This document shows, piece by piece, positions 10,996 through 30,209 of a stretch of 32,000 nt of DNA (position 1 is the first letter of the stretch; every line of letters starts with the position of its first letter). The position numbers and the translations under genes were made by a program. The DNA is from Ruminococcus albus 7 = DSM 20455 (GTDB taxonomy: Bacteria; Bacillota; Clostridia; Oscillospirales; Ruminococcaceae): assembly GCF_000179635.2 (NCBI RefSeq), contig NC_014833.1, forward strand, positions 480,001 to 512,000. Reading direction: 5' to 3'. The notes beneath the pieces were generated by a model that worked only from the letters and a program-made list of their open reading frames with translations, did no database searches and had not been told where the DNA came from.

Positions 10996-13830
10996 ATGCC
11001 CATTAACGAAATAATCATAAAGGGTGCGAGGGAGCATAACCTTAAAAATGTGGATCTTACGATCCCACGTGACAAGCTGATAGTTATGACGGGGCTTTCG
11101 GGATCGGGTAAGAGTTCGCTGGCTTTTGATACTATATATGCGGACGGTCAGAGAAGATATGTGGAATCACTGTCCTCTTATGCAAGAATGTTCCTGGGGC
11201 AGATGGACAAGCCCGATGTTGACAGTATTGAAGGGCTTTCCCCTGCGATATCCATAGATCAGAAGACTACATCGAAGAATCCGCGTTCAACTGTGGGCAC
11301 TGTTACGGAGATATATGACTACCTGCGTCTTTTGTATGCGAGGATAGGTGTGCCACACTGCCCTGTTTGCGGACGAGAGATAAAACAGCAGACAGTCGAT
11401 CAGATAGTCGATCAGCTGATGGCGCTGGAAGAGGGTACCAAGATACAGCTTCTCGCTCCCATAGTGCGTGGAAGAAAGGGTACTCACCAGAAGGAGTTCG
11501 AGCAGGCTAAGAAGTCCGGCTATGTACGCGTGAGGGTGGACGGCATAACCTATGATCTTTCGGAGAATATAGAGCTTGAAAAGAACAAGAAGCATACTAT
11601 CGAGATAGTGGTTGACAGGCTTGTTATCAAGGAGAGCGTAAAATCGAGACTGACGGATAGTATCGAAACTGTGTCCGCGCTGACGGGCGGACTTGTGACG
11701 GCTGATGTTATCGGCGGCGAGGAAATGACGTTCTCGCAGAGCTATGCCTGCCCTGAACACGGAGTGTCCATAGGGGAGCTTGCACCCAGAATGTTCTCGT
11801 TCAACAATCCCTACGGTGCCTGTGAGAAGTGTACGGGTCTGGGAGTTTTCAAAAAGATAGATCCCGACCTGATAGTGCCGAACAAGAATCTATCCATATC
11901 CGAGGGCGCTATCAAGGCGAGCGGCTGGAACGTTTCTGACGATAGCTCAATAGCCAATATGTATTTCAGGGCGATATCCGATGAATACGGCGTGCCGCTG
12001 GATAAGCCCGTCAGCGAACTGACAGAGGAACAGCTCGACCTGTTCCTGTATGGTACAGGCGACCACAAACTTCATCTTTCACGCGGCAGCAAGTTCTACA
12101 AGGCGGAGTATGATTCAGCTTTTGAGGGAATAATCCCCAATCTGGAAAGACGTTATAAGGAATCGAACAGCGATTGGTCAAAGGCTGATATCGAATCGAA
12201 TATGAGCGAGGAAGCCTGCCCTGCCTGCAAGGGCAGAAGACTTCGTTCCGAGAGCCTTAGCGTGACTGTGGGCGGACTGAATATTGCGGAGCTTTGCGAT
12301 AAGTCTGTTGTGGCAGTTCTGGGATTTCTTGAAAGTGTTGATCTGACAGAACGCGAAAAACTCATAGGCGAGAGGATAATCAAGGAGATAAAGGACAGAC
12401 TGGGATTCCTTGCCAGCGTGGGTCTTGAATACCTGACACTGTCCCGTTCTGCGGGTACGCTTTCTGGCGGCGAGAGCCAGAGAATAAGGCTTGCTACGCA
12501 GATAGGTTCGTCATTGGTGGGCGTGCTTTATATCCTTGATGAGCCGTCTATCGGTCTGCACCAGAGGGACAATGATAAGCTGATAGCTACGCTGAAACGT
12601 CTGCGCGACCTTGGCAACACGCTGATAGTGGTCGAGCATGACGAGGATACCATGTATGCCGCTGACCATATAGTCGATATAGGTCCGGGAGCAGGCATAC
12701 ACGGCGGTGAAGTCGTGGCGCAGGGTACGGTGGAAGATATCAAAGCCTGCGAACGCTCGATAACAGGGCAGTACCTCAGCGGAAGAAGAAAGATACCCGT
12801 ACCGACAGAAAGGCGCAAGGGCAACGGTAAATTCCTGACAGTAAAGGGTGCTAGGCAGAACAATCTGAAAAATATAGACGTTAAGATACCGCTGGGAACT
12901 TTCACCTGTGTTACAGGTGTATCGGGCAGCGGAAAGAGTTCATTGGTGAACGAGATCATCAACAAATACCTTTCTGCAAAACTTAACCGCGCGAAAGTAA
13001 GGGCGGGAGAGTTCGATAAAATGGAGGGTGTATCCCATCTCGATAAAGTAATAAATATCAACCAATCCCCCATAGGCAGAACACCGAGATCGAACCCTGC
13101 GACCTATACAGGCGTTTTCACCGATATCCGTGAGCTTTTCGCCCAGACACAGGACGCGAAGATGAAAGGCTACAATTCGGGAAGATTTTCTTTCAACGTA
13201 AAGGGCGGACGATGCGAAGCCTGCGAGGGCGACGGCATAATCAAGATTGAGATGCACTTCCTGCCTGATGTGTACGTGCCCTGTGAGGTCTGCGGAGGAA
13301 AGCGGTATAACCGCGAAACTTTGGAAGTAAAATACAAGGGTAAGAGTATATACGATGTACTGGAAATGACAGTTGAGGAAGGTGTGCAGTTCTTCACGAA
13401 TATGCCGAAAATACAGCGCAAATTGCAGACCCTTTACGAAGTAGGTCTGGGATATGTGAAGATAGGTCAGCCTGCGACAACGCTTTCGGGCGGTGAAGCA
13501 CAGCGCGTGAAGCTTGCGACTGAGCTTGCAAAGCGTGCGACGGGACGCACCATATATATCCTTGATGAGCCGACAACAGGTCTGCATACGGCGGACGTTC
13601 ACAAGCTGATAGAAGTTCTGCAAAGGCTTGCCGATGCGGGAAATACTGTGCTTGTGATAGAGCATAATCTCGATGTTATAAAGACAGCTGACCACATAAT
13701 CGACCTGGGACCCGAGGGCGGTGACAAGGGCGGTACAGTGGTATGTACAGGCACACCCGAGGAGATAGCGGCTTGTGAGGAGAGCTATACTGGTCAATAT
13801 CTTTCTAAATTCATAATTCACAATTCGTAA
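10996..13830 (+). CDS. uvrA: Excinuclease ABC subunit A
   Basis: 944 aa with two ABC ATPase modules ([18 protein letters not shown]; [16 protein letters not shown]) and zinc-finger Cys clusters. Confidence 0.97.
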
Positions 13831-13849
13831 TTCATAATTGTTGGCAGGG

Positions 13850-14220
13850 CAACGACGAAGTTGGATAAGAATGCCAAGGAGAAGAGCTTTTCGCTAAAGT
13901 TCCGATTTCGCGACAGCAAATCTGTGTCCCAAACAAACTACGCCGCGAATCAAAGCGCGCGGTCAAGCCTCGCGCTAGCAGGCTTGCGGGGAGCCACAGT
14001 CAGCAAGGCTGACTGTTAGGGGCAGAGCCCTCAATCACCAAGGAACAAAACTAAAATGCACAGCGAACTATAAAAGCAAAACAAACTACCGACCAAATAA
14101 AGGCGCGGGCAATACCAAAAAGTACGAGCGTATACGACCGTATGCACTCGTATTTTTTTGTGCGTGATTATTGTCCGCGCCCGAAATCGGACAGCGAAGC
14201 GAATCCGATTTCTCGCACCG
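13850..14220 (+). other. GC-rich, hairpin-dense noncoding element (candidate structured RNA or repeat element) downstream of uvrA
   Basis: Contains a string of perfect hairpins: 13996..14016 (9-bp stem), AAGCCT/AGGCTT near 13964..13986, and GAAATCGGA/TCCGATTTC at 14183..14212. An 11-bp helix, 14102..14112 with 14171..14181, encloses a terminator-like hairpin. There is no credible ORF. Confidence 0.3.
14122..14159 (+). terminator. Probable intrinsic terminator of the uvrBA transcript
   Basis: The stem GTACGAG...CTCGTA(T) is followed by TTTTTTT and preceded by AAAAA. Confidence 0.6.
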
Positions 14221-14331
14221 TCAGGGGCGACCCGATACCGCAGGACTGTCGTTACCATTAGCTTGGTACGGCTATTTTTATATGACAAAAAGGGAGTTAT
14301 GTGAAAATTTGGAGAAAATTTTATATAAGTA

Positions 14332-14366
14332 TTGACAAAATGAGTGAAATGGTGTAAAATTACACC
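14332..14366 (+). promoter_or_regulatory. Sigma-A promoter with an overlapping 16-bp palindrome (possible operator)
   Basis: TTGACA, a 17-nt spacer, then TG-n-TAAAAT. The inverted repeat GGTGTAA-AA-TTACACC (14351..14366) covers the -10. Confidence 0.6.
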
Positions 14367-14401
14367 ATAGAAGCAAAAAGATACTATTTGGGGGAGTTTT
14401 A

Positions 14402-15274
14402 ATGATACTCAAAAAACTGCTTGCAATAATGACCGCGGCGGTGCTGGCTGTTTGTGCGGCGGGGTGCGGGAAAAATACTGAAAAAGCGCCAAAGCACTAC
14501 ATGGCGGCAGATTATGAACTCGATGACCCTGCACAGCTTGATGACTGGCAGATAAACGTGCTGAAATCAAAAGGTCTGCCGACGGATTACAATGAGCTTA
14601 AAATCGGTCAGCGGGATTCGATTTACCGCATGGGAATGATGCACCGCTATCTGGTGGATAAGTACGGCATTGAGTTTGAGTATGCGGGCTATTATCAAAG
14701 TGGGTTCGGGCAGAAAGAAGAACTCATTGTAATGCCCGAAGGTGCTTATGAGAACGACAGCAGAAGCATAGTTTCTGTACGGGAGAAAGACGGGGAGTTT
14801 TCTGATAATTACGGAGATTATGAAGTGTTGATGTATATTGAAAATATGTACGAAGAACACGCAAAAGAGTTTTTCAAATCTGACAAGATCAAAGCGATAG
14901 CAGTTTCAGTTAATGATAATCAACTTGGTTACAGCCATTTTGATGAAGAAGAAAATTTTCACAATGACTTGGGAATCAGCGCAGTTGTTATAATTTCCGA
15001 TGAGATATGTGACAGAGAAAAATGTGAAGAATACGCTGATGACTTAAGAAAATATCTCGGAGAGAGAGAACTAGTTGGGATAACAAGGATTTCTGTATTA
15101 AAAAATGTAGATGTAAGTAAAATAAATAATAATAATTTAAAAGATTATCGTAACGACAACTATATAATAGACTTAGATCTTGGACGAGATTCTGATGGAA
15201 AGACGGATATTTTGTATTTACATGAAGATAAGCATATCTATTATGATGAAAAAGGTAATATAATCGATAAATAG
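14402..15274 (+). CDS. Lipoprotein of unknown function
   Basis: Signal peptide with a lipobox (AAGC-G). RBS GGGGGAG. Acidic 290-aa protein with an AT-rich, Asn/Asp/Lys-rich C-terminal tail. Confidence 0.7.
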   Translation: MILKKLLAIMTAAVLAVCAAGCGKNTEKAPKHYMAADYELDDPAQLDDWQINVLKSKGLPTDYNELKIGQRDSIYRMGMMHRYLVDKYGIEFEYAGYYQSGFGQKEELIVMPEGAYENDSRSIVSVREKDGEFSDNYGDYEVLMYIENMYEEHAKEFFKSDKIKAIAVSVNDNQLGYSHFDEEENFHNDLGISAVVIISDEICDREKCEEYADDLRKYLGERELVGITRISVLKNVDVSKINNNNLKDYRNDNYIIDLDLGRDSDGKTDILYLHEDKHIYYDEKGNIIDK

Positions 15275-15290
15275 ACAGAGGGGTGATAAA

Positions 15291-15746
15291 ATGAACCGTG
15301 ATGAATTCATCAGTATGATGAGCCGGAATCTTAAACTGGTGAGGACGGAGTTTGAACTCAATCAGGATAAAATGGCGCATTGTCTGGGGATATCGAAGAA
15401 AACTCTGGTGGAGATAGAAAAAGGAAGAACTCTGCTGGGGTGGACGGGTTCGGCGGCGCTGGCTGTCATATTCTCGGACAGCAGTGTTTTGCAGAATGCT
15501 TTCGGCGGCGAAATGAGTGACCTTGTAAAGGCGCTGGCTTTCGATGATACAACTGTCAACTTTCGTCAGACACATGGCGGCAAGGTATGGTGGAGGCAGA
15601 TAGAGACCACCGATAAATGGAAGATACAGCAGAACTATATATCACAGCATTACCGCCTGCTGACAGCGGGCGACAGGTGCGTGTATTCCTCATTCCATCT
15701 GGAAAAGGTGAAGAAAGCGGCTGAGGAATATGAGCGGGGATTGTGA
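15291..15746 (+). CDS. XRE-family helix-turn-helix transcriptional regulator with an unknown ~85-aa C-terminal domain
   Basis: The N-terminal sequence LKLVRTEFELNQDKMAHCLGISKKTLVEIEKG is an HTH_3/XRE-type motif. RBS GAGGGGTG. The gene starts 16 nt after the lipoprotein gene. Confidence 0.72.
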   Translation: MNRDEFISMMSRNLKLVRTEFELNQDKMAHCLGISKKTLVEIEKGRTLLGWTGSAALAVIFSDSSVLQNAFGGEMSDLVKALAFDDTTVNFRQTHGGKVWWRQIETTDKWKIQQNYISQHYRLLTAGDRCVYSSFHLEKVKKAAEEYERGL

Positions 15747-15755
15747 CAGGCGAAG

Positions 15756-16055
15756 ATGATCTCGGGAAAAAGGAACATCATTATAAGACTATCCCTCGGA
15801 TTGCCTGTATGTGCGGCAATGACGATATTCTGGGCGAAAGTTATGGTAAGTGCCGAATACGGCGGTATAGCTTTTTTCAACTCAGGCGGAGATTATATCG
15901 CAGCCGCGATTATACTGCCGATAGTGTACATTATCTTTTGCAGGGTTATGGCAAAAAAGCTTCCTGTTGAAAACGGAAAGTGGGACGCTGGTTGCTGGGC
16001 GATGATGTTGATAGTTTATCCTGTTGCGACGCTGATTTGTAATTTCGTATCGTAA
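15756..16055 (+). CDS. Small membrane protein (3 predicted TM helices)
   Basis: 99 aa with three hydrophobic stretches. It starts 9 nt after the XRE stop. The overlapping alternative frame 15743..15970 is less protein-like. Confidence 0.5.
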   Translation: MISGKRNIIIRLSLGLPVCAAMTIFWAKVMVSAEYGGIAFFNSGGDYIAAAIILPIVYIIFCRVMAKKLPVENGKWDAGCWAMMLIVYPVATLICNFVS

Positions 16056-16178
16056 AAGCGGACAAAAATAAAGCAGAGAATTTGTGCAGAACGACACCAT
16101 AAAAAGAGAGCAGACAAAACGTATATTAAAAGTAAGGGCTTTTAATAGCAGAAAAGTTCAGGAAAAAGCCCTGTCATC

Positions 16179-16207
16179 TTGAATATTTGTTAACGATATG
16201 TTATAAT
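16179..16207 (+). promoter_or_regulatory. Sigma-A promoter of the giant membrane-protein gene
   Basis: TTGAAT, a 17-nt spacer, then TATAAT. Confidence 0.65.
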
Positions 16208-16265
16208 ACAAATAACAAATGATTTTGAAATACTTTCCCCGTAACAGGGGCAAAGGGGTGAAACT

Positions 16266-19200
16266 ATGGGAACAGTATTATTTATCATATTATGGGTGCT
16301 CTCGCCTATCATATTGCTGCCTATGTGTATCAGTTATTCATTGAAACGCAAAAAAATTGAGCGCTTCATAGATCAGCTGTACAGAGAAAGCAGGATATCC
16401 TCGAAAGAGAAGTTTGAACTTAAAACAGAGAGGGAGACTAACAGCAGGACGCTTTATAATATGACTCCCGTGCAGAGAAATGAAGGTTACTTCTTCAAAG
16501 ACGAGGCACGTAATACTTACGGGCAGAAAGGGCTTCAGGACAGTGCGGGAAATGTCGGGTATGTTCCGCAGCCACAGCAGATTTCTGCTGAAAAGAATAC
16601 TGCGGCGGCACAGAACGTTTCTGCGGTACAGGAGAATACACCTGCACAGACGGCTGTTCAGGCTGAAATACAGCCTCAGCACCATCACGACGGTGTTGAC
16701 CTTGTAAAGCATACTGAAACAGTACAGGAAAAGCCCACAGAGGCAAGACCTGTTCAGCCTGAGCAGAAAAAAGCTGCGGAGATACATCAGCCTGCAGCGG
16801 TGCATACTGTTCCTGTTCAGCGTACACCCGCTCCTATGACGGCGGAGGAGTACAACAACAGACAGCCTCTTCCAGAATGGGCTAGACCTCAGGTCGTTCA
16901 GAGACCTCTGCACGCGCCGAGACCGAAACGAGAGAAGAAGCAGTACAGCTCTGCGGCGGTGCTTACCGGTATAGGCATAACATTCGTAGTGCTGGCAGGA
17001 ATAATATTCTCAACTGCTTTCTGGGTACAGATGAGCGACTGGACCAGAGTTGGTGTACTTGCTGCACAGGCGGCGCTGTTCTTTGGGATGTTCGGCTTTA
17101 CACATAAAAAACTGAAAATAGAGGGCACTGCGTCAGCGGTATACATACTGGGCTCGGTGTTCACAACGATAGCTTATTTAACTACGGGATACTTCGGTCT
17201 TTTCGGAGCGTGGTTCGGAATAGAGGGCGGCGGTATGCTGCTGTTCCTTGCAATGGGCGGACTATTGATAACGTTCTTTGCAGCGGGTGCTATGAAGGTA
17301 TTCGCTAAGCCGGTATATGAATATGTTTCCTGTGCGACAATAGCGATATCGGGCACACTGATCCTTGGACAGTTTGCTGATTATTTTGAAAACAAATACG
17401 CAGTATTCTCGCTGCTGGTATCGGCTGCAGGTCTGCTGGTTTCAGTATTATTGTCTCTCAGAAAAAAAGATGGCAAAGAGATATCCAAGCCTGCGTATCT
17501 GATATACAAATTCGTTAAGGCAGTCTATGCGGTAATGGCTGTGCCGTGTCTGGTAGCTGATATCGGAAAAGGTGAGGTAGGATTTGGCTGGTCGCTGGCA
17601 GGCTGGGGCGTATGGATGATCTATACAGGTGAGACTCTCTGGCGTGCGATCCGCGATAAGAGCCGGAAATGGCTGGCTTACCATGCGGTGCTCATACTTG
17701 CAGGTTCAGTTGGCCTGATCATGACACTTGATAATTATCCTTTGTTTGCACTGCTGATAACCATATTCTCAGCTGTTGGCAGCTGGTCATATATCTATCT
17801 TGAAAAGAAAGATATGCTGCTTTTCAAGGCGGATAAGGTACACTTCTTTATGCGTGCCGTTTTCATTATGGCTGCGATACCCTTGCTGTTCAGACATCCT
17901 TATGAAAGCGGTGCACAGTTTGCTGTGATACTTATATGGCTGGTGGATCATGCTGCGATGGCAGTGCATTACAAACGTCAGGCGCTGATGATACCTCAGT
18001 GTGCAGCGGTGCTGAGTCTGGCACTTGAACTGATATCCAGGCTGGATCATATCGTCGATTTGTACAATACTGAAACGCTTGCCTCGCTGATACTTATCGT
18101 TGCAGGTATTATAGGTACTATGGTGTACAGATATCTGGAGCACAAGGGCAAGGTAAAGCTGAAAGCTAATGCTGTCAATGTACTTATGAGGATCTTGCTG
18201 AGCTTACCTGCATTTGCGTGCATGATTTTCGGAGCGGATGACAAAAACCTTATTATTTCCATGAGCCTGCTGCTGATCACAGAACTGAGCGTTTACGCTG
18301 TACTGTTCCGCAGACAGAATGAGCTGTTCTTCAGATTTGTATTTATATGTATAACTGTCGGGATGCTCATACCGCATGACTTTGACAAGTTCGGGCTTGA
18401 TGATGATAAGCTGTTCGCACTGATAATGTTCGGTATGAGTCTGGTATGTACTGCGGTCTATGAGATACTGCTGCGCCATGACAAGGTGCTGTTCCGCGCT
18501 AAGCAGTTCATATTTTGCTCAAAGGCGTTTATCAGTCTGTTCGGACTTGCTATAGTGCTAGGAGATTTCTTCAGTGACAGTACATTCGGCTGGTTCGATT
18601 GGGTGATGCTTGGCAGTGTGGCAGCAGAAACACTTGCGTATGCTGTCATCAAGAAGAGCCCTTACCTGCTTTTGGTACACAATATCTGTCTTGCATTCAT
18701 GCTTGCAGAGTGTGGTATACTGATCGATGACGCACCTTTATTTGCACTGATGGTGACAGGACTTCTCTCGGCACTTTCGATGATATACTTCCGTCTGCAC
18801 GATACCGGCAAGCTGAGATTCAGCGCTAAGACTTCGATAATACTCATGCGTGGAATATTCGGGTATTTTGCTCTTGCTATACTCATACAGGACTTCGGAA
18901 CATGGCGCTGGGAGTGTTTTGGCATAGCTGTGATAATTGCAATTGAGATGCTCTATTACGCTATTGCCAAGAGAAATCAGGGTATACTTCTGGCACATAT
19001 AACAGCACTGACCTATTCGTTCCTGATGATAGGTATATATGCAAAGGACTTCACTGTATTTGCTTTGATATGCTGTCTGGTGGCTGCTGTCGGAAAACTG
19101 GTACATCATATACTCAAAGTGAAAAACAAACTTCGCTTTGATGTCGAATACCTTGTCTTCAGGGTGAATTTAGTTTATATACTGCTCTATGTGGTGATGC

Positions 19201-20792
19201 TGTTTATTGAATACCCGGATTACAGTCCTATATCAGCGGTAATATGGGCGATAGTCACAGCAGAACTGATATTCTACGGTATAGCCGAAAAGGACAAAGC
19301 CTATATCTATGCTCACAGTCTGACACTGCCTGTTTTGTTCCATGTGATAAGCTATATGATAGGCTCGCATTTTGGCGGCGGATATACAAACACATTTATA
19401 TTCACAATGCTGATAGCTGCAGCACTGGCGCTTTACTATATCATACCTGCGATATTCTCGGATCTGGCTGATGTGCTTTACACAGCAGCACTGTTCGGAC
19501 TGGGTGTAAAGCTGCTTTACGGTGCGGCACTTCCTTATGGCGTTATAGCTATGGCGGTGGCAGCGATATTCATGGCAATACAGGCATTCAGCAAGGATCA
19601 TTTACAATCAAAGCTCATGCGGCTTCTTCTGCCGCTGCCTGAGATTGTAACAGCCATGATGCTTTCTGATCATATCTACAGAGAATACGGTATGCACTGC
19701 AGATCGCTTTCCATGGGAATATGTGCGGCGGTGCTCTGTGCAGGTGCATTTGCACTTCAGTTCGGTGATGAGAAAGAAAACAATTACAGGCTGATGAAGA
19801 CCGTTACGGAGATCGGCTCGGGTGTATCACTTCTGATGGCATACGATCACGGGCGAGATCTTACGGCGGCACTGATAATGACTCTGGTGAGTGTAGTGCT
19901 TTTCGCAGTTATGCAGACTTCAAAGAGCAATATACATTCTGCACTGCCGGTGTTCACAATGTTCGCAGGTGCAGGTATGGCGGCACGTTCTATATGGTTC
20001 GATCCGATGCGTGAGGGTAATGCGATAGTATTGTTCTCAATTGCAATGACAGCAGTGCTGGCTGTTACATCAAAGCTTATGTTCCCTGACAGGCTGTATA
20101 AAAAAGATAATGACGGTCTGAAGCTTGACGTTGCTCATTTCGGTATAGTGTTGTGTGCGATCAGCTGTATCAAGGAGAGTATGATGTTCTCTCCGAGGGC
20201 GAGAATGTTCATAGCCCTTCTGGAACTGACAGTGTTCACAGCGAACTTTATACGCAGTGAGAGCACAGCTTCCTGCAAAAATGCGGCAATGACGACAGCG
20301 GCAGGGCTGGCGGGACTGGCACTGATCGGAAGACCTTTCATGCAGTTTGAAAACAGCACTGTGACAACCAAGATAATACTGGTTATAATCGTCCTCTTCG
20401 GTCTGGCAGTGAAGAAGATATGGGCTGATGACAAGAAGGTATCATCTGAATTCAGCCAGACAGTATTTATGGCAGCGTTCCTGCTGCTAATAGCTGACGG
20501 ACTTATGAATCAGTCACTGCTGAACTCATTAGTGGTTCTCAGTGTATCTCTGGTGCTGCTGATATATTCCTTTGTCAGAAAGACAAGACGCTGGTTCCTG
20601 GTATCAGCTGTCGCACTGCTCGGACTCACCCTTTACATAACAGGCGATTTCCTTGCGGCTGTGGCATGGTGGGCTTACCTGCTGCTGGCGGGCATAGTGC
20701 TGATAGTAGTAGCGGCGGTCACGGAGTATCTTCGTCAGCGTGCGGCAAAGAACCCGCAGGAAGAAAGATTCTTCGTAGATTGGAAATGGTAG
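16266..20792 (+). CDS. Giant (1508 aa) polytopic membrane protein of unknown function with tandem 4-TM repeat modules
   Basis: A single uninterrupted ORF with RBS AAGGGGTG. It has an N-terminal TM helix, a ~200-aa Q/P/A/E-rich linker, and then ~1250 aa of hydrophobic helices. Six units of 107-113 aa can be aligned across aa ~378..1040. Confidence 0.85.
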   Translation: MGTVLFIILWVLSPIILLPMCISYSLKRKKIERFIDQLYRESRISSKEKFELKTERETNSRTLYNMTPVQRNEGYFFKDEARNTYGQKGLQDSAGNVGYVPQPQQISAEKNTAAAQNVSAVQENTPAQTAVQAEIQPQHHHDGVDLVKHTETVQEKPTEARPVQPEQKKAAEIHQPAAVHTVPVQRTPAPMTAEEYNNRQPLPEWARPQVVQRPLHAPRPKREKKQYSSAAVLTGIGITFVVLAGIIFSTAFWVQMSDWTRVGVLAAQAALFFGMFGFTHKKLKIEGTASAVYILGSVFTTIAYLTTGYFGLFGAWFGIEGGGMLLFLAMGGLLITFFAAGAMKVFAKPVYEYVSCATIAISGTLILGQFADYFENKYAVFSLLVSAAGLLVSVLLSLRKKDGKEISKPAYLIYKFVKAVYAVMAVPCLVADIGKGEVGFGWSLAGWGVWMIYTGETLWRAIRDKSRKWLAYHAVLILAGSVGLIMTLDNYPLFALLITIFSAVGSWSYIYLEKKDMLLFKADKVHFFMRAVFIMAAIPLLFRHPYESGAQFAVILIWLVDHAAMAVHYKRQALMIPQCAAVLSLALELISRLDHIVDLYNTETLASLILIVAGIIGTMVYRYLEHKGKVKLKANAVNVLMRILLSLPAFACMIFGADDKNLIISMSLLLITELSVYAVLFRRQNELFFRFVFICITVGMLIPHDFDKFGLDDDKLFALIMFGMSLVCTAVYEILLRHDKVLFRAKQFIFCSKAFISLFGLAIVLGDFFSDSTFGWFDWVMLGSVAAETLAYAVIKKSPYLLLVHNICLAFMLAECGILIDDAPLFALMVTGLLSALSMIYFRLHDTGKLRFSAKTSIILMRGIFGYFALAILIQDFGTWRWECFGIAVIIAIEMLYYAIAKRNQGILLAHITALTYSFLMIGIYAKDFTVFALICCLVAAVGKLVHHILKVKNKLRFDVEYLVFRVNLVYILLYVVMLFIEYPDYSPISAVIWAIVTAELIFYGIAEKDKAYIYAHSLTLPVLFHVISYMIGSHFGGGYTNTFIFTMLIAAALALYYIIPAIFSDLADVLYTAALFGLGVKLLYGAALPYGVIAMAVAAIFMAIQAFSKDHLQSKLMRLLLPLPEIVTAMMLSDHIYREYGMHCRSLSMGICAAVLCAGAFALQFGDEKENNYRLMKTVTEIGSGVSLLMAYDHGRDLTAALIMTLVSVVLFAVMQTSKSNIHSALPVFTMFAGAGMAARSIWFDPMREGNAIVLFSIAMTAVLAVTSKLMFPDRLYKKDNDGLKLDVAHFGIVLCAISCIKESMMFSPRARMFIALLELTVFTANFIRSESTASCKNAAMTTAAGLAGLALIGRPFMQFENSTVTTKIILVIIVLFGLAVKKIWADDKKVSSEFSQTVFMAAFLLLIADGLMNQSLLNSLVVLSVSLVLLIYSFVRKTRRWFLVSAVALLGLTLYITGDFLAAVAWWAYLLLAGIVLIVVAAVTEYLRQRAAKNPQEERFFVDWKW

Positions 20793-20799
20793 ACATGAT

Positions 20800-20838
20800 A
20801 TATCGGAGGGCGGTCGAGCCGTTCTCCGATATTTTTTG
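20800..20838 (+). terminator. Intrinsic terminator after the giant ORF
   Basis: 9-bp stem ATATCGGAG / CTCCGATAT followed by TTTTTT. Confidence 0.85.
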
Positions 20839-20933
20839 CGATTATTGCTGTGCAGTGCTCACAAAAAGTATGTTTCAAATTTGTGCATAACGGCATTGTG
20901 TGAAGGCTTTTTGTGTAAACATCTCAAAAATAC

Positions 20934-20962
20934 TTGCAAGATGTTCGGAAATATGGTATAAT
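20934..20962 (+). promoter_or_regulatory. Sigma-A promoter (extended -10) of the PHP gene
   Basis: TTGCAA, a 17-nt spacer ending in TGg, then TATAAT. Confidence 0.65.
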
Positions 20963-21028
20963 TATTTAGTCAGTATGTATATACTGTGTTTATATAACTT
21001 ATAGGATTACGATTTGGAGGTTCATAAA

Positions 21029-21952
21029 ATGGTAGGCGATCTGCATTGTCATACGACCCTTTCGGACGGTTCACTGGGCATAGAAGAAGTTATTGCGCAG
21101 GCAAAGCGCATGGGGCTGGATTTTCTTGCCATAACCGACCATGATACGCTGTCATCCACGAGCCGTGCGCAGATACTTGGTGAACGCTACGGAGTAAATA
21201 TAATACAGGCAGTAGAGCTTTCTGCATGGGACAAGAAGCGCAACGAGAAAGTGCATATCCTTTGCTATGCGCCGCAGAAACCCAACAGGCTTGAAGGTCT
21301 TTGCCTTAAATCATGTCAGATAAGGACAGAGTGTGCGAAGGACATGATAAACAAGATCATGGAAAGGTATCCCATTCCCCGCGATGCTGTGATGAAGTAT
21401 ACCAAGGGCTCAAAGAGCATATATAAATCACATATAATGCGTGCGCTGATAAGCTACGGTTATGCCACTGAGTTTTACGGCTCAGTGAATGACAGGCTGT
21501 TCTCGTATCCCCGCGGTGAGTGCCTGGTGACAAGAGAATATCCCGATGTCAATTTCGTGCTTGATCTGATACATTCTTCAAAGGGAGTGGCTGTATTGGC
21601 ACATCCCCATATGTTCGGCAATATCCAGCTGATGAAGGAACTTACAGAAGCAGGTAAGCTTGACGGCATAGAGTGTTTCCATTTTTCGGCAACGGAAACA
21701 CAGCAGAATGCGCTTAAAAAGTATGCTGAAAAGCATGATCTGATAGTTACGGGCGGCTCGGATTTCCACGGCCTTTACAACAGCACCATGACCCATATCG
21801 GCAAGTTTACAACCGATGAGGAGAATCTGGAAAAGCTGTTCAGGCTGATACACCAGAATGCGAAGAAAGCCAAAAAAGCAGGCGAAGCCTCTGATATACA
21901 GGCTAAGGAGGATACCGCTCCTGCCGAGGAAACATCGACTGAGGAAGAATAA
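21029..21952 (+). CDS. PHP-domain metal-dependent phosphoesterase (TrpH/YciV-like)
   Basis: Has DLHCHTTLSDGS, ITDHDT, AHP and GGSDFHG motifs. ATG 21029 lies 8 nt after GGAGG and is preferred over TTG 21014. The C-terminal tail is K/E-rich. Confidence 0.85.
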   Translation: MVGDLHCHTTLSDGSLGIEEVIAQAKRMGLDFLAITDHDTLSSTSRAQILGERYGVNIIQAVELSAWDKKRNEKVHILCYAPQKPNRLEGLCLKSCQIRTECAKDMINKIMERYPIPRDAVMKYTKGSKSIYKSHIMRALISYGYATEFYGSVNDRLFSYPRGECLVTREYPDVNFVLDLIHSSKGVAVLAHPHMFGNIQLMKELTEAGKLDGIECFHFSATETQQNALKKYAEKHDLIVTGGSDFHGLYNSTMTHIGKFTTDEENLEKLFRLIHQNAKKAKKAGEASDIQAKEDTAPAEETSTEEE

Positions 21953-26391: not shown

Positions 26392-26468
26392 GCAAAGTAA
26401 GGAAATGACTGCGTAAATAATTTTGTTGACTATACACAAATATTATGCCAAAGCAACGGGGGATAACT

Positions 26469-29400
26469 ATGGAAAGGAATCCTAAACAAAGACCTTTGAT
26501 AGGTGTTGTTATAAATGAGCCTGATCAGGATTTTTATAATAAAGCGCTGTATCATGTCCAGAAGGAGATTTTTGCACATGATGCTGACGCTGCAATCTTC
26601 AATACCCTGCTGACTCAGATCGATCAGGTGGGCGTAGAAAACTCTGTCTTCTCGCTGATAGAGCCGGGTCTGCTTGATGGTATGATCGTGTTCGGATATA
26701 CAATAAAGAATGAGGATGCTAAAGCGAGTATACTCCGTATCATAGACCACAGTGATCTTCCTGCGGTATGTATCGGTTTGGAAACTGAGAATATGACCAG
26801 CATCATGTTCGATAACGATGAGTGTACGGATAAGATAGTCAGACATCTGACAGAGTGGCATCATGTAAATGATGTATGTTTCGTCAGTGGTCCTGAGGAC
26901 AGCATTTTCCATAACAGAGTACTGAAAAGCTTTAGAAAGGCATTTTCGGAACAGGGGATAGATCTGACTGATGACAGGATAATCTACGGTCCTGACTGGA
27001 TAGGTGAATATACCTCGGTGGCTGATGATATACTTGATCACGGCTTGCCGCAGGCTATTGTATGCATAAGTGATTTTACAGCTGCGGGAGTTATCGGTGC
27101 TCTTACTGAGAAAGGTGTACATATACCCGAGGATGTTATTGTTACGGGCTACAGCATGAATGAACCCTTTGCATCTGATTATATTAACATAACCTCCATC
27201 GAGCGCCGTCCTGAAACTATGGCGGTAGAGGCTGTGAGAAAACTTTTTGCCAAGATAAAATGGGAGGAGTATGTTCCTGCGGAGAGAAAGCCATGCTGTG
27301 TACTTCGCAAGGGTGTTACCTGCGGATGTGAAAGGATCAATCTTGCAGAGCTTTCTCGCTCGGCAATGGATAATATGGTATCTACAAGGCGTTCGGGATT
27401 TGATTCATACTATAACGATATGTCTGAAACGCTGGTAAACGCTGAAAGCTTTGACGAATTTTTATGGAGACTTGATTGGTATACCCGTTACCTTGGGGAT
27501 TTTGAGAGTTTCTGGCTATGCATTAATGATGGCATAATGCACGTGCTCGGTGACAAGCTGGAGGATTATTCCGAAACGCTGTCCATAGCCTACAGCCGAC
27601 AGAACGGCAAGGGTGCTGTCCCGGGCGGAGCGGGATTCAGCAGGCGCGAACTTCTTCCTGCTATATTCGGTGAAAGGGACAAGCCGAGTGCTTTTATATT
27701 CAACTGTCTGCATTTCAGACACGTGAATTATGGGTATACTGTGCTTTCGTACGGCGATTCAGGTGCTTTTTTTGATAAGCACTACGTTATGTGGCTGCGG
27801 TATGCGGCTATTGCTTTGGAAAAGCAGAGAAGGCATGTACTTTATAATGACAGCGTTTCCGATGACCAGATCAGAGATTCGCTGACGGGTCTGCTGAATG
27901 TTAAAGGATATAAAAAGGTCATGACACAGCGCTGCGGCAGCTTTGACCGTCCTGATATGATCATGAGGATAATCTCTGTAGATGTTGAGAACCTGAGAGG
28001 TATAAACTCTGCCTACGGATACAGTGAGGGCGACAGGGTACTTCAAAGGCTGGCTATGATACTCAACAACAGCGCAGGCGAGGACGATATCTGCGTAAGG
28101 GTCAGCGGCGATGAGTTCTTTATTTGCGGACTTATGGAGGCAGCTGTGCCTGTGGACGATGTTCCTGTTAATCTTGAAAGGAACCTTGATGCGTTCAATT
28201 CTGATTCGACAATAGATTTCGGTGTGCATTTCTATACTTCAAGAGTGGTTGCACCCCTTACTTCTGCGGAAATACTTGATACTCTGCCGTACGAAGCAAA
28301 TTATCAGCGTACGCTGGCCAAGGATAATCATAAAAAGAAGCGTACAGGTATCGCTGACGGACGGGAAAACAAGAGTGCGGAGCACTATGATGAGGATGAG
28401 AGAAAGCTGGTCGCAAAGATACTCAACGATGACCTGCTGACCTACCACTTCCAGCCTATAGTAAGTGCCAGGACCGGTGATATAGTTGCATATGAGGCAC
28501 TTATGAGATATGAGGGAGAGGTGAAGATATCTCCTATAACGATACTGAGCCATGCGTCTGCTATGGGCAGGCTTGATGATGTTGAAAGACATACCATGTA
28601 CAACCTGTTCAAATTCGTTCATGAGCATCAGGATGATCTGGGTGAGAGACAGCTGTTCATAAACAGTATACCTTCATGTACCCTGCCTGACAAGGACTTT
28701 GAAGAACTATGCAGTACCTACAGCGATATCGTCAAGAAAATAGTTATAGAGTTTACGGAGCAGACCGAAGCCAGCACACAGCAGCTTGAAAAGGTGCTGG
28801 AGAGGCGCAGCCGCTACGGCATAGGCATAGCTATAGACGATTATGGAACGGGCTATTCCAATATAAGCAATCTGCTGACATTCATGCCGAACTGCGTGAA
28901 AATAGACAGAAGCCTTATCATGAATATCCATGAGGATAAGCGCAGACAGCATTTTGTTAAGAATATAATCGACTATGCGCGCGATAATCATTTCAAGGTA
29001 CTGGCAGAAGGCGTTGAGAAAACAGAGGAGCTCAGAACTGTCACAGGCATGGGCATAGACCTCATACAGGGATATCTGACAGCACGTCCTGCACCCGAAC
29101 CGATAAAAGTAATACGTGCTGATATCAGGGATAAAATAAGAGAATGCAACCGTGTGAATGAGAATATAAAGGTCAAAAAGACTTTCTTTGCAGGAGGTGA
29201 ACGCGAGCTTTCGCTGATGGCATTGGATTTTGATGACTATACAGAGGTATTTGTCACTGACGGCAACTGTGCATTGAAAGGTACAGAGGGATACACTTCA
29301 TCACTTTGTATAAAGAACAAAGATGGTCTTGATTGCAGGCTGAGACTGGATAGTGTAAGTCTGTCGGGCGAAAACAATGAGGCATCTATAATCGTCGGAA

Positions 29401-30209
29401 AGGGCAGCAGACTGACGCTGGAGATAGAAGGTAATGTACTGCTGGGCGGTTCTATAAGTGTTCCGACGGGAGCATGGCTGGATATAGTCGGCAAAGGTGA
29501 CCTTATGATGCGGTCGTATATGACACAGAGCTATGGCATAGGTTCGGATCCTCTCAGCGGTTATGGCATGATAAATGTTCATCTGAACGGCAGACTGGAT
29601 ATCAGCATAGATGGAGAACATTGTATAGGCATAGGAGGAGGCTTCGCTTCGCCTAACAGCAAGATCGAGATATGCTCTGAAGATGTGGATATCGAGCTGG
29701 CGGGCAAGCACCTTATATGTGTCGGAGCGATAGATTCCGACACTTCGGTAACGATCAGGGATACCAGGCTGCTAATGTCGACACACTGCGTTGAGGGTAT
29801 GGGTATAGGCAGCAGCAAGGGCGAACTGGATCTGTTGGTCGAAAACAGTGAGCTGAAATATGATGCATCAGGTGATAATATCTCCTGTATATGTGTTTCC
29901 GATAAAAAGAGCGGCAAGGCTGTACTGCGTGGGACTGAGATCTCAGCAACTATGCGCGGAAAGAATCTGATGGCTATAGGTTCGTCGAATGGTAATGCCT
30001 CGGTAAATGCCGAAAACTGTATATTCGATATACTGGGTGAAGGTGCAAGGGCTATGGGCTTAGGCGGTGCCGATCCTGAAACGGAAGTGAACCTGAAAAA
30101 TTGCAGCGGCCATATCAAATTCAGCTCCAGCCATTGTGAGGTGTTTGAGGTTGCGGAGGATAAGCTGAAGCAGGAGGATTGTGATATCAAGATCAGTCTG
30201 AATGAGTGA
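26469..30209 (+). CDS. Multidomain c-di-GMP turnover protein: LacI-type ligand-binding domain, unknown region, GGDEF (SGDEF), EAL, and a C-terminal ~29-aa repeat domain
   Basis: No TM helix or signal peptide. Residue numbers are counted from the 26445 ORF start.
- aa ~17-272 resemble a LacI/PBP type-1 sugar-binding core (IGVVI, DGMIVFG, FDNDECT, CFVSGP, AIVCISDFTAAG, IPEDVIVTGY) without an HTH.
- The GGDEF domain has DSLTGLLN and RVSGDEFFI.
- The EAL domain has YEALMRY, IEFTE, DDYGTGYS, KIDRS, EGVE and QGY.
- ATG 26469 lies 7 nt after GGGGGA and is preferred over 26445. Confidence 0.85.
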   Translation: MERNPKQRPLIGVVINEPDQDFYNKALYHVQKEIFAHDADAAIFNTLLTQIDQVGVENSVFSLIEPGLLDGMIVFGYTIKNEDAKASILRIIDHSDLPAVCIGLETENMTSIMFDNDECTDKIVRHLTEWHHVNDVCFVSGPEDSIFHNRVLKSFRKAFSEQGIDLTDDRIIYGPDWIGEYTSVADDILDHGLPQAIVCISDFTAAGVIGALTEKGVHIPEDVIVTGYSMNEPFASDYINITSIERRPETMAVEAVRKLFAKIKWEEYVPAERKPCCVLRKGVTCGCERINLAELSRSAMDNMVSTRRSGFDSYYNDMSETLVNAESFDEFLWRLDWYTRYLGDFESFWLCINDGIMHVLGDKLEDYSETLSIAYSRQNGKGAVPGGAGFSRRELLPAIFGERDKPSAFIFNCLHFRHVNYGYTVLSYGDSGAFFDKHYVMWLRYAAIALEKQRRHVLYNDSVSDDQIRDSLTGLLNVKGYKKVMTQRCGSFDRPDMIMRIISVDVENLRGINSAYGYSEGDRVLQRLAMILNNSAGEDDICVRVSGDEFFICGLMEAAVPVDDVPVNLERNLDAFNSDSTIDFGVHFYTSRVVAPLTSAEILDTLPYEANYQRTLAKDNHKKKRTGIADGRENKSAEHYDEDERKLVAKILNDDLLTYHFQPIVSARTGDIVAYEALMRYEGEVKISPITILSHASAMGRLDDVERHTMYNLFKFVHEHQDDLGERQLFINSIPSCTLPDKDFEELCSTYSDIVKKIVIEFTEQTEASTQQLEKVLERRSRYGIGIAIDDYGTGYSNISNLLTFMPNCVKIDRSLIMNIHEDKRRQHFVKNIIDYARDNHFKVLAEGVEKTEELRTVTGMGIDLIQGYLTARPAPEPIKVIRADIRDKIRECNRVNENIKVKKTFFAGGERELSLMALDFDDYTEVFVTDGNCALKGTEGYTSSLCIKNKDGLDCRLRLDSVSLSGENNEASIIVGKGSRLTLEIEGNVLLGGSISVPTGAWLDIVGKGDLMMRSYMTQSYGIGSDPLSGYGMINVHLNGRLDISIDGEHCIGIGGGFASPNSKIEICSEDVDIELAGKHLICVGAIDSDTSVTIRDTRLLMSTHCVEGMGIGSSKGELDLLVENSELKYDASGDNISCICVSDKKSGKAVLRGTEISATMRGKNLMAIGSSNGNASVNAENCIFDILGEGARAMGLGGADPETEVNLKNCSGHIKFSSSHCEVFEVAEDKLKQEDCDIKISLNE

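Follow-up and report, generated by a model that had tools for sequence, protein, structure and literature searches.

The window analysed here, a stretch of 32,000 nucleotides (nt) of the Ruminococcus albus 7 genome (contig NC_014833.1, positions 480,001 to 512,000, forward strand), contains a gene encoding a protein of 1508 amino acids (aa), designated the giant protein. The giant protein is a genuine integral membrane protein, the product of a selected gene, and belongs to an uncharacterised family of the Bacillota. Its central portion is an array of six tandem units of four transmembrane (TM) helices, which arose by tandem duplication of a unit present as a single copy in relatives of about 800 to 1230 aa. 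We propose, with a probability of roughly 0.4, that the protein is an extensible membrane sensor or scaffold, built from units held together by polar residues and coupled to transcription.

A selected gene encoding an array of four-helix units

The coding sequence (CDS) and its flanking signals are located as follows.

16266..20792 (+): CDS of the 1508-aa polytopic membrane protein, intact, with an ATG start
16179..16207 (+): promoter-like sequence TTGAAT-17-TATAAT with TG ahead of the -10 element, from a pattern scan and reading of the sequence
16253..16260 (+): Shine-Dalgarno-like sequence AAGGGGTG, 5 nt upstream from the ATG codon, read from the sequence
20800..20832 (+): intrinsic-terminator-like hairpin with a 15-bp stem and a T-run, starting 8 nt past the stop codon

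An earlier note made from the sequence by a model (the original prediction) had assigned to the gene its own promoter and a strong terminator. The terminator-like hairpin and the TTGAAT-17-TATAAT sequence are both present. However, consensus promoter matches in the region around the gene were not enriched over shuffled sequences (18 versus 14.0 ± 3.7), and the promoter-like site is therefore plausible but not proven. Rfam detected no leader RNA in 13800..21100.

A 99%-identical protein (P0001) is encoded by independent contigs, and the length of 1508 aa is the same on two independent metagenome contigs. Comparison of the gene with its counterpart on an independent, 99.2%-identical contig (L093) revealed 24 synonymous and 10 nonsynonymous differences, corresponding to a ratio of nonsynonymous to synonymous changes per site (pN/pS) of 0.13. 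The array portion contributed 8 synonymous and no nonsynonymous differences. These results indicate that the gene is functional and constrained. Intact orthologues were found in at least 8 species-level genomes, in addition to one orthologue truncated at a contig end, and the cultured R. albus strains KH2T6, 8, and AR67 harbor intact orthologues of 1516 to 1825 aa. As had been predicted, the gene is thus a real one under selection rather than a random hydrophobic reading frame. The possibility of an assembly or annotation artefact or of a non-expressed reading frame, which the original prediction had tied to a lack of homologues and of expression, is effectively refuted by these conservation data; the ribosome-binding site, promoter-like site, and terminator are also all in place.

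The six units of the array, each comprising four TM helices, are listed below with the polar residues that occupy equivalent positions in helices 1 to 4.

17394..17735 (+): unit U1, aa 377-490; L396, K418, E456, H473
17736..18071 (+): unit U2, aa 491-602; Y509, R530, D561, Q578
18072..18404 (+): unit U3, aa 603-713; Y621, R642, E673, R690
18405..18731 (+): unit U4, aa 714-822; Y732, K753, E788, H805
18732..19046 (+): unit U5, aa 823-927; Y841, R862, E894, H911
19047..19382 (+): unit U6, aa 928-1039; H947, N968 (with R966 two residues before), E1000, H1017

Pairwise Smith-Waterman comparison of U1 to U6 gave z-scores against shuffled sequences of 1.8 to 17.5, with values above 4.5 for 10 of the 15 pairs. 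Pairs including an equally hydrophobic control segment taken from the N- or C-domain of the same protein gave z-scores of -0.8 to 2.9, with the exception of one control-control pair (U7-U8, z-score of 4.1). Autocorrelation based on BLOSUM scores peaked at offsets of 106/112, 220, and 332. A hidden Markov model (HMM) of the six units identified 6 to 9 copies in independent orthologues, with E-values of 1e-13 to 1e-30 per copy. The tandem repetition of six four-helix units of about 110 aa, as originally predicted, is therefore statistically real. The same HMM found nothing in the flanking domains of the giant protein (E ≥ 0.35), and alignment of the unit profile with the N- and C-domains by hhalign was not significant. 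The more degenerate copies that had been thought to flank the core were accordingly not recovered, and the candidate origin of the unit as a diverged copy of the DUF2157-like N-domain or of segments of the C-domain was rejected on the basis of the hhalign result. Tandem Repeats Finder detected no DNA-level repeat in the gene, indicating that the duplications are old.

The unit, for which no database model exists, can be defined as a segment of about 105 to 114 aa with four TM helices, containing F-A-L...Y in helix 1, K-x-K-L-x-F-x-A in loop 1, R/K in helix 2, E/D...Y in helix 3, a K/R loop, and H/Q in helix 4. The giant protein contains six copies. Loops 1 and 3 are basic, loops 2 and 4 are acidic or aromatic, and the positive-inside count places the six units in a single orientation.

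Column statistics were computed for 188 distinct copies of the unit. Position 72, in helix 3, is acidic in 182 copies (97%; E in 158 and D in 24), and position 40, in helix 2, is basic in 180 (R in 155 and K in 25). Position 19, in helix 1, is Y in 156 copies. At position 89, in helix 4, H (85 copies, 45%) or Q (67 copies, 36%) accounts for 81%. The basic residue at position 40 and the acidic residue at position 72 were found together in 178 copies, were both absent from 4, and were mixed in 5 (Fisher p = 7e-6). Joint loss of the two residues, replaced by A/Q three times and by N/Q once, corresponds to about three independent events. In the giant protein, 23 of the 24 polar residues (four per unit) are located 5 to 8 residues away from the cytoplasmic end of their helix, and the remaining one at 10 residues. 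Information content is 1.6 to 1.7 bits in the cytoplasmic loops, as compared to 0.5 to 1.1 bits in the outer loops, which are very short (about 5 to 10 aa).

All of the unit motifs quoted in the original prediction are present, but the Glu and His said to be conserved inside every repeat are not found in all of them, since Glu occurs in five of the six units (Asp in U2) and His in four (Gln in U2 and Arg in U3). The buried acidic residue is not a lone charge, since it covaries with the Arg or Lys of helix 2, which had been missed. This covariation, and the location of the pair at the same depth as the Tyr of helix 1 and the His or Gln of helix 4, favor a structural ion pair within the unit over a role in ion or proton handling. 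The four residues, Tyr (helix 1), Arg/Lys (helix 2), Glu/Asp (helix 3), and His/Gln (helix 4), would form a polar clasp situated, as seen from the cytoplasmic side, at about one third of the membrane depth, with the Arg-Glu ion pair as its core. We infer that the cluster is probably structural and that the Glu is probably not a transport site.

Exhaustive searching of 1.84 billion representative proteins with the unit profile identified 16 matching proteins, seven with 5 to 8 matched stretches, eight with one, and one with two, the latter nine proteins ranging from 462 to 1148 aa. The one-unit forms retain the whole plan of the family, with the anchor helix, the RISxxEY segment, the N-domain, one unit, the C-domain, and an RFFEDW(K/T)W end. 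In species genomes, the number of units was 6, 7, 6, 7, 8, 7, 8, at least 9, and 7, as compared to 1 or 2 in shorter relatives. Variation in copy number, for which the original prediction had suggested looking, thus exists within the R. albus group, which ranges from 5 to 9 units (6 in KH2T6, 7 in strain 8, 8 in AR67, and 6 to 9 in metagenome-assembled genomes), and extends to the relatives of about 800 to 1230 aa, which have 1 or 2.

The family itself is broader than the unit. Scanning one genome per species with a profile of the C-domain revealed relatives in 201 genomes, including those of Ruminococcus and other Oscillospiraceae, of Lachnospiraceae, and of members of the Bacillaceae such as Cytobacillus, Halobacillus, Oceanobacillus, and Virgibacillus; the matches of a C-domain profile in a set of 5.8 billion proteins were mostly fragments. 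Internal repeats were detected in 28 of 75 family proteins, with a minimum period of 105 to 118 aa in 24 of the 28 and copies up to 97% identical. The P0022-type unit is homologous to that of the giant protein (hhalign probability of 86.5%, E-value of 4.6e-6). The P0023-type unit is a different module, found as a single copy in the giant protein (residues ~1049-1131; hhalign probability of 95%, E-value of 2e-8), and the unit of the Peribacillus protein P0027 is unrelated to that of the giant protein. Amplification of modules of four-helix length is thus a trend that recurs independently within the family. Sister proteins encoded at four loci (L027, which encodes P0022, L030, L032, and L025) contain 5 to 7 tandem units of about 112 to 115 aa that are 85 to 97% identical to each other. 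These arrays are very recent amplifications within the CDS, located beside genes encoding a HisKA_7TM kinase and a NarL-type regulator.

The portions of the protein evolve at different rates. Relative to the organism encoding P0014, identity is 33% for the array, 70% for the N-domain, and 76% for the last 208 aa, and reaches 83%, 89%, and 93% for the neighboring XRE regulator, UvrA, and UvrB, respectively. For P0002, P0014, P0015, and P0017, the N-domain is 61 to 80% identical versus 30 to 54% for the array; for P0019, the most distant orthologue, these values are 40% and 25%. The last 208 aa are 71 to 82% identical in orthologues P0002 to P0017 and 49% identical in P0019. At the DNA level, the gene is 70% identical to its counterpart in R. 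albus KH2T6 (L013), versus 81 to 92% for the flanks. Together, these results indicate that the end domains are conserved and that the array is fast-evolving, yet under purifying selection, with change being tolerated at most of its positions over longer times.

Flanking domains and family assignment

Outside the array, the protein contains the following segments.

16275..16337 (+): N-terminal anchor helix, aa 4-24, followed by KRKK; hydrophobic and conserved across the Oscillospirales members of the family
16338..16943 (+): polar linker, aa 25-226, predicted to be cytoplasmic from its composition; its first modelled residues have a low pLDDT (predicted local distance difference test)
16944..17393 (+): five-helix N-domain, aa 227-376, corresponding to the part of homologues that matches DUF2157
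19383..20789 (+): C-terminal membrane domain, aa 1040-1508, with about 17 helices and a small beta hairpin in the AlphaFold2 model
19410..19658 (+): module amplified in P0023 and single-copy here, aa ~1049-1131
20244..20744 (+): SCO7613_CTERM-like region, aa 1327-1493, matching NF047321 below its cut-off

The protein comprises an N-out anchor, a cytoplasmic linker that spans about 200 aa and is tethered at either end, a five-helix N-domain, the variable array, and a multi-helix C-domain. The anchor helix and the Q/P/A/E-rich linker were both recognised in the original prediction. Q, E, A, and P together account for 39% of linker residues 25-226, which are 30% hydrophobic, as compared to 64% for the remaining 1282 residues. 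The C-terminal end of the protein is a conserved ERFFVDWKW. AlphaFold2 models of residues 215-1110 (pLDDT of 77.6, predicted template modelling score [pTM] of 0.52) and 925-1508 (pLDDT of 81.5, pTM of 0.68) are nearly all helical. They contain 5 helices in residues 229-371, 24 in residues 377-1036, and about 17 from there to the C-terminus, together with one small beta hairpin. With the anchor, the models bring the total to about 46 TM-like helices, in agreement with the 40 or more counted by eye in the original prediction. If successive helices are taken to cross the membrane in alternation, 46 Lys and Arg residues fall in the loops assigned to the inside versus 11 in the outside loops, supporting a simple up-down topology.

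Two segments of the linker stand out. According to the orthologue consensus, a helix of the pattern FIxxLYxxxRISxxE is conserved at aa about 31-52 (nt 16356..16421; FIDQLYRESRISSKEKFELK), and nearly all family members, those of the Bacillaceae among them, show its L..L...G.IS..EY pattern on visual inspection. By eye only, this segment resembles the bihelical SHOCT domain. When 8 N-terminal segments were scanned alone with SHOCT (PF09851, cut-off of 27 bits), a weak match was obtained for P0024 only (13.3 bits, E-value of 0.07). The second segment, HHHDGVDLVKH (aa 139-149, nt 16680..16712), is kept as HHHxGVDLVKH across R. albus-type orthologues, and more distant orthologues (P0019 and P0020) harbor two or three zinc ribbons in the equivalent linker. 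HHHDGVDLVKH could be a metal- or partner-binding site.

The N-domain is connected to DUF2157 (PF09925, gathering score of 32.4 bits) through homologues. Residues 306-420 of P0019, which matches the giant protein with an E-value of 1.6e-170, match DUF2157 at 41.6 bits and align to residues ~235-349 of the giant protein. P0029 matches DUF2157 at 39.5 bits, and P0022, P0021, P0024, and the family proteins of loci L042, L072, and L091 at 20 to 30 bits. Since the giant protein has no DUF2157 match of its own and homologues score above the cut-off, its membership is by transitivity only. At the other end, the position equivalent to the SCO7613_CTERM-like region (NF047321, curated cut-off of 45 bits) was matched in 12 of the 13 relatives scanned, P0022 being the exception, with scores of 16.9 to 41.4 bits, none of which reached 45. 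Remote homology to SCO7613_CTERM is plausible from these scores, which fall short of formal membership. The giant protein belongs, as a divergent member, to an uncharacterised family of the Bacillota in which an N-domain similar to DUF2157 is combined with a C-domain similar to SCO7613_CTERM.

Searches for other relationships were negative. A sequence search of the PDB with the giant protein gave 0 hits. Foldseek found nothing at E ≤ 0.001 for both models against the PDB or for the C-terminal model against BFVD; the best matches were solenoids of soluble proteins (TPR, HEAT, or designed), at TM-scores of 0.1 to 0.3, and a weak match to EccD3 (E-value of 0.5 to 0.9). PADLOC and PHROGs returned no match for the giant protein. 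A literature search retrieved mentions of DUF2157 and SCO7613 but no publication addressing the family of the giant protein. The statement of the original prediction that the family could not be recognised thus holds to the extent that no curated family, solved structure, or characterised fold accounts for the architecture, but the homologues do reveal DUF2157 and a sub-threshold SCO7613_CTERM.

Gene neighborhood and proposed role

Three genes precede that of the giant protein, with uvrB and uvrA also located upstream.

14402..15274 (+): lipoprotein-like open reading frame (ORF), 290 aa, with a signal sequence ending in AAGC; no Pfam or NCBIfam match
15291..15746 (+): XRE/HTH_19 regulator gene, 151 aa, Pfam HTH_19
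15756..16055 (+): small membrane protein of 99 aa, in the slot of variable content that separates the XRE gene from that of the giant protein; no Pfam or NCBIfam match

Downstream, the window contains genes for a PHP phosphoesterase, which follows the giant protein, a DUF4352 protein, and an HTH_3 protein; a malic enzyme gene is also among the flanking genes. The original prediction had asked whether the lipoprotein, XRE, and small membrane protein genes form a conserved neighborhood, and this is the case for XRE only. Homologues of the XRE regulator (66 to 96% identity) were found upstream, on the same strand, in 11 of 11 multi-repeat loci with enough sequence (among them L001, L002, L007, L008, L013, L016-L019, and L021), and XRE is the only conserved neighbor in the R. 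albus clade. The lipoprotein was rejected as a conserved partner, being absent from R. albus KH2T6 and other loci; in KH2T6 (L013), a different insert of about 2.7 kb occupies its position. Between the XRE gene and that of the giant protein, 0 to 4 variable genes for small membrane proteins are present. The 99-aa gene is missing in L013 and is replaced in L093 (99.2% identical, positions 543-1037) by a gene for an unrelated 164-aa membrane protein. The slot is thus a swappable cassette. Proteins of the 99-aa type recur in L015, L019, L016, L018, and L001, and those of the 165-aa type, the family of the L093 protein, recur in L008, L021, L007, and L017. The candidate that these small proteins are free-standing copies of the unit was rejected, no match to the HMM being found. 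The XRE family, found in Clostridia with a size of about 150 aa, is large and well conserved (1313 hits, the best 120 of which share 52 to 99% identity). The XRE regulator of the window has a C-terminal extension of about 85 aa (GGKVWWRQIE…WKIQQNYISQHYRLL) without family match.

In sister subfamilies, the family gene is associated with a two-component system. At 14 Oscillospirales loci, it is directly followed, on the same strand, by a gene for a kinase with HisKA_7TM, HisKA_3, and HATPase_c domains and then by a gene for a regulator with Response_reg and GerE domains. The gaps range from an overlap to about 110 nt, and the loci belong to two divergent subfamilies. Some of the family proteins in this group are 796 aa long and contain one copy of the unit of the giant protein, at L042 and also at L040, where the contig ends before a kinase could show.

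Other associations were noted in the course of this survey. Genes for a pair of membrane proteins with bacterial PH domains (bPH_2), resembling YdbS and YdbT (about 142 and 478 aa), lie directly upstream from those of family proteins of about 800 aa in six loci (L040-L046), and a kinase gene is also present downstream in four of them (L042, L043, L044, and L046). At the Peribacillus P0027 locus (L004, 989-2641), a PadR - HAAS - DUF4097 (Toastrack) trio is located 3 to 5 kb upstream from the family gene, which may be a coincidence. PadR, HAAS, and DUF4097 are partner domains in PSP/Lia envelope-stress systems. Elsewhere in the window, 26445-30209 (+) encodes a 1254-aa protein with an N-terminal sugar-binding domain of the LacI/periplasmic-binding-protein type followed by GGDEF and EAL domains of cyclic-di-GMP signalling, and GGDEF/EAL genes are found just upstream from the family gene in L030, L032, and several Oceanobacillus loci. 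Finally, 4582-6363 (-) encodes a 593-aa protein whose C-terminal half matches L,D-transpeptidases (E-value of 2e-41 to PDB 1zat).

We propose that the array would form a length-adjustable helical solenoid in the plane of the membrane, between two conserved end domains, and would thereby enlarge the membrane footprint of the protein. The giant protein would report or organise the state of the membrane or cell envelope. Coupling to transcription might involve the 7TM HisKA_3 kinase and NarL-type regulator encoded downstream in the sister subfamilies, and the XRE regulator encoded upstream in the R. albus clade, with the conserved cytoplasmic loops and the linker motif as the likely contact surface. 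The sensing or organising role and its coupling to transcription are put forward with low to moderate confidence, on less support than the clasp and the solenoid. A more specific version, analogous in principle to a Piezo blade although unrelated in evolution, is that the membrane-embedded solenoid would sense bilayer tension, curvature, thickness, or lipid packing over a large in-plane footprint, with a sensitivity or range tuned by gain and loss of units. Output would pass by way of the end domains and cytoplasmic loops to the 7TM HisKA_3 kinase in the sister clades or to XRE in the R. albus clade. We regard this version as improbable.

Several observations weigh against the proposal of a sensor or scaffold coupled to transcription. 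In the R. albus clade, no two-component system adjoins the gene, which has its own promoter-like site and terminator. The XRE regulator is found elsewhere beside unrelated genes (encoding a PBP_like_2 protein or a 173-aa protein), and the downstream gene differs between genera. In view of the size of the XRE family and of these other neighbors, the linkage may reflect synteny within the clade rather than a functional partnership. The candidate role of XRE as a dedicated partner was for this reason dropped, and the linkage was weighted only moderately. The family assignment is also indirect, since the giant protein itself had no Pfam hit at the cut-off, no DUF2157 match even at E ≤ 1, and a match to NCBIfam SCO7613_CTERM (NF047321) of 18.4 bits (E-value of 0.0013, residues 1327-1493), below the cut-off of 45. 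DUF2157 has been merged with the N-terminal 4TM "sensory" domain of LiaI/LiaF in one comparative study, and the link to LiaF is the claim of this single study (PMC11237479). Finally, the Arg-Glu contact and the solenoid geometry draw on helix boundaries, on covariation, and on the kind of Foldseek matches obtained, and the covariation of the basic and acidic residues amounts to the few independent losses described above.

It is quite possible, if on balance doubtful, that the giant protein is a passive structural scaffold or organiser of the membrane without signalling, whose array would supply membrane area or a platform, for instance for surface assemblies, and whose neighbors would control its expression and receive no signal. 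The free copy number, from 1 to 9, the amplification of unrelated modules in other lineages, the fast divergence of the array, the lack of any globular domain or catalytic motif, and the separate promoter-like site and terminator all agree with such a role. However, the end domains and cytoplasmic loops are far more conserved than filler would need, and a kinase/regulator pair tightly downstream from the family gene at 14 loci of two divergent subfamilies is the pattern of accessory sensor proteins. Fast divergence would also be expected of a surface-exposed protein acting as a target or a shield (a receptor or decoy for phages, for instance, or an immunity protein related to bacteriocins), with an array diversifying and changing in length in an arms race. 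The gene is less similar to its KH2T6 counterpart than are its flanks, the array far less similar to that of the P0014 organism than UvrA and UvrB, close relatives differ in copy number, some lineages have amplified their units recently, and 99%-identical strains differ in the content of the slot for small membrane proteins. We nevertheless consider this reading quite unlikely: the outer loops, the least conserved, offer little exposed surface, the array shows no nonsynonymous change between close strains, PADLOC and PHROGs gave no match, and the flanking genes (uvrA, uvrB, PHP phosphoesterase, and malic enzyme) do not provide a mobile-element context.

The original prediction took the conserved polar pair to argue for a function such as ion, proton, or substrate handling, or for a very large membrane scaffold. 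Of these two options, the scaffold fits better than a transporter since function tolerates 1 to 9 copies and other lineages amplify unrelated modules. In a transporter or channel, the acidic residue and the His of each unit would act as relay or binding sites, and a membrane-embedded acidic residue in nearly all copies, H or Q at the helix-4 position in most of them, and purifying selection on the array could be read in this way. We consider this unlikely because a basic residue at equal depth pairs and covaries with the acidic one, the charged cluster lies near the cytoplasmic third of the membrane instead of lining a path across it, and orthologues function with anywhere from 1 to 9 units. 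Furthermore, no Pfam, NCBIfam, or PDB match to transporter or channel superfamilies was obtained, by sequence or by fold, and the giant protein has no inverted-topology internal repeat, as follows from the common orientation of the units. It is very improbable that the giant protein is a membrane enzyme such as a synthase of polymers or lipids. The suggestion comes from the weak similarity of the C-terminal region to the C-terminal domain of SCO7613, a protein proposed to be PhaC-like, deletion of which lowered polyhydroxyalkanoate (PHA) content in S. coelicolor, a modest phenotype (PMC8313934). The match is sub-threshold and covers TM helices only; there is no lipase box, no alpha/beta-hydrolase domain, and no soluble domain beyond the disordered linker, and Foldseek gave no match to GT-C or synthase folds.

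The giant protein is of interest in several respects. Proteins with more than 40 TM helices are rare. Within the searches made, no Pfam, NCBIfam, PDB, or literature match was found for a bacterial, copy-number-variable array of four-helix TM units. The end domains are catalogued yet uncharacterised. The four-helix unit, its rarity, its variation in copy number, and the covarying ion pair appear to be undescribed, as do the family-wide accordion behavior and the link to two-component systems. The family provides a natural series of 1 to 9 units, with independent amplifications of different modules and some copies that are still 97% identical. This series could reveal the way in which polytopic membrane proteins expand through tandem duplication, as well as the contribution of a buried Arg-Glu pair to the stability of a minimal four-helix module. 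If the link to sensing is true, the family would represent a new kind of accessory membrane sensor in the Bacillota, including cultivable R. albus strains and Bacillaceae, and the tuning of sensing by the size of a membrane footprint would become directly testable. If it is false, the giant protein still defines an orphan family that is well delimited and experimentally approachable.

Comparison with known systems

The liaF-liaS-liaR genes form an envelope-stress module of Bacillus subtilis, encoding a membrane protein, a HisKA_3 kinase, and a NarL/GerE regulator. Homologues of the giant protein have their DUF2157 match in the first TM block past the linker, and the comparative study cited above places this domain together with the N-terminal 4TM domain of LiaI and LiaF (PMC11237479). 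The sister subfamilies share with this module both the gene order and the class of kinase and regulator. The giant protein differs from LiaF by the lack of a Pfam hit and of a C-terminal Toastrack/DUF2154 domain, being helical and hydrophobic up to its last 12 residues. Its size is about fivefold that of LiaF, and it contains in addition a repeat array and an extensive C-terminal TM domain. The kinase of the sister loci differs from LiaS by its 7TM sensor (HisKA_7TM). In the window, the neighbor of the giant protein is an XRE regulator, and no HisKA_3 kinase or NarL regulator is encoded directly downstream.

SCO7613 (NF047321) resembles the family in that the last ~170 aa of the giant protein and the same place in 12 of 13 relatives match its C-terminal model, and in that all are large polytopic proteins. 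In contrast, all scores are below 45 bits, and SCO7613 is actinobacterial, its only functional report being a PHA phenotype that is silent on the C-domain (PMC8313934).

The blades of the Piezo1/2 channels consist of tandem four-helix TM units, with 38 TM helices in Piezo. The giant protein shares with them four-TM-helix bundles in the same orientation, arranged as a long array in the membrane, and a very high helix count (38 versus ~46). It differs by its compact units (~110 aa) with very short loops and by the lack of a pore module, cap, or beam; for either model, Foldseek found nothing in the PDB at E ≤ 0.001 and no Piezo entry among the 50 best hits. There is no match in sequence or fold, and the resemblance concerns architecture only.

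Soluble alpha-solenoids (TPR, HEAT, and designed toroids) are the only kind of structure that Foldseek retrieved for both models. They are water-soluble and built from two-helix units, and TM-scores of 0.1 to 0.3 at E ≥ 0.08 indicate a similarity of type, not homology. What the array has in common with them is the tandem arrangement of helical units in variable copy number, with fast-evolving surfaces and few conserved packing residues.

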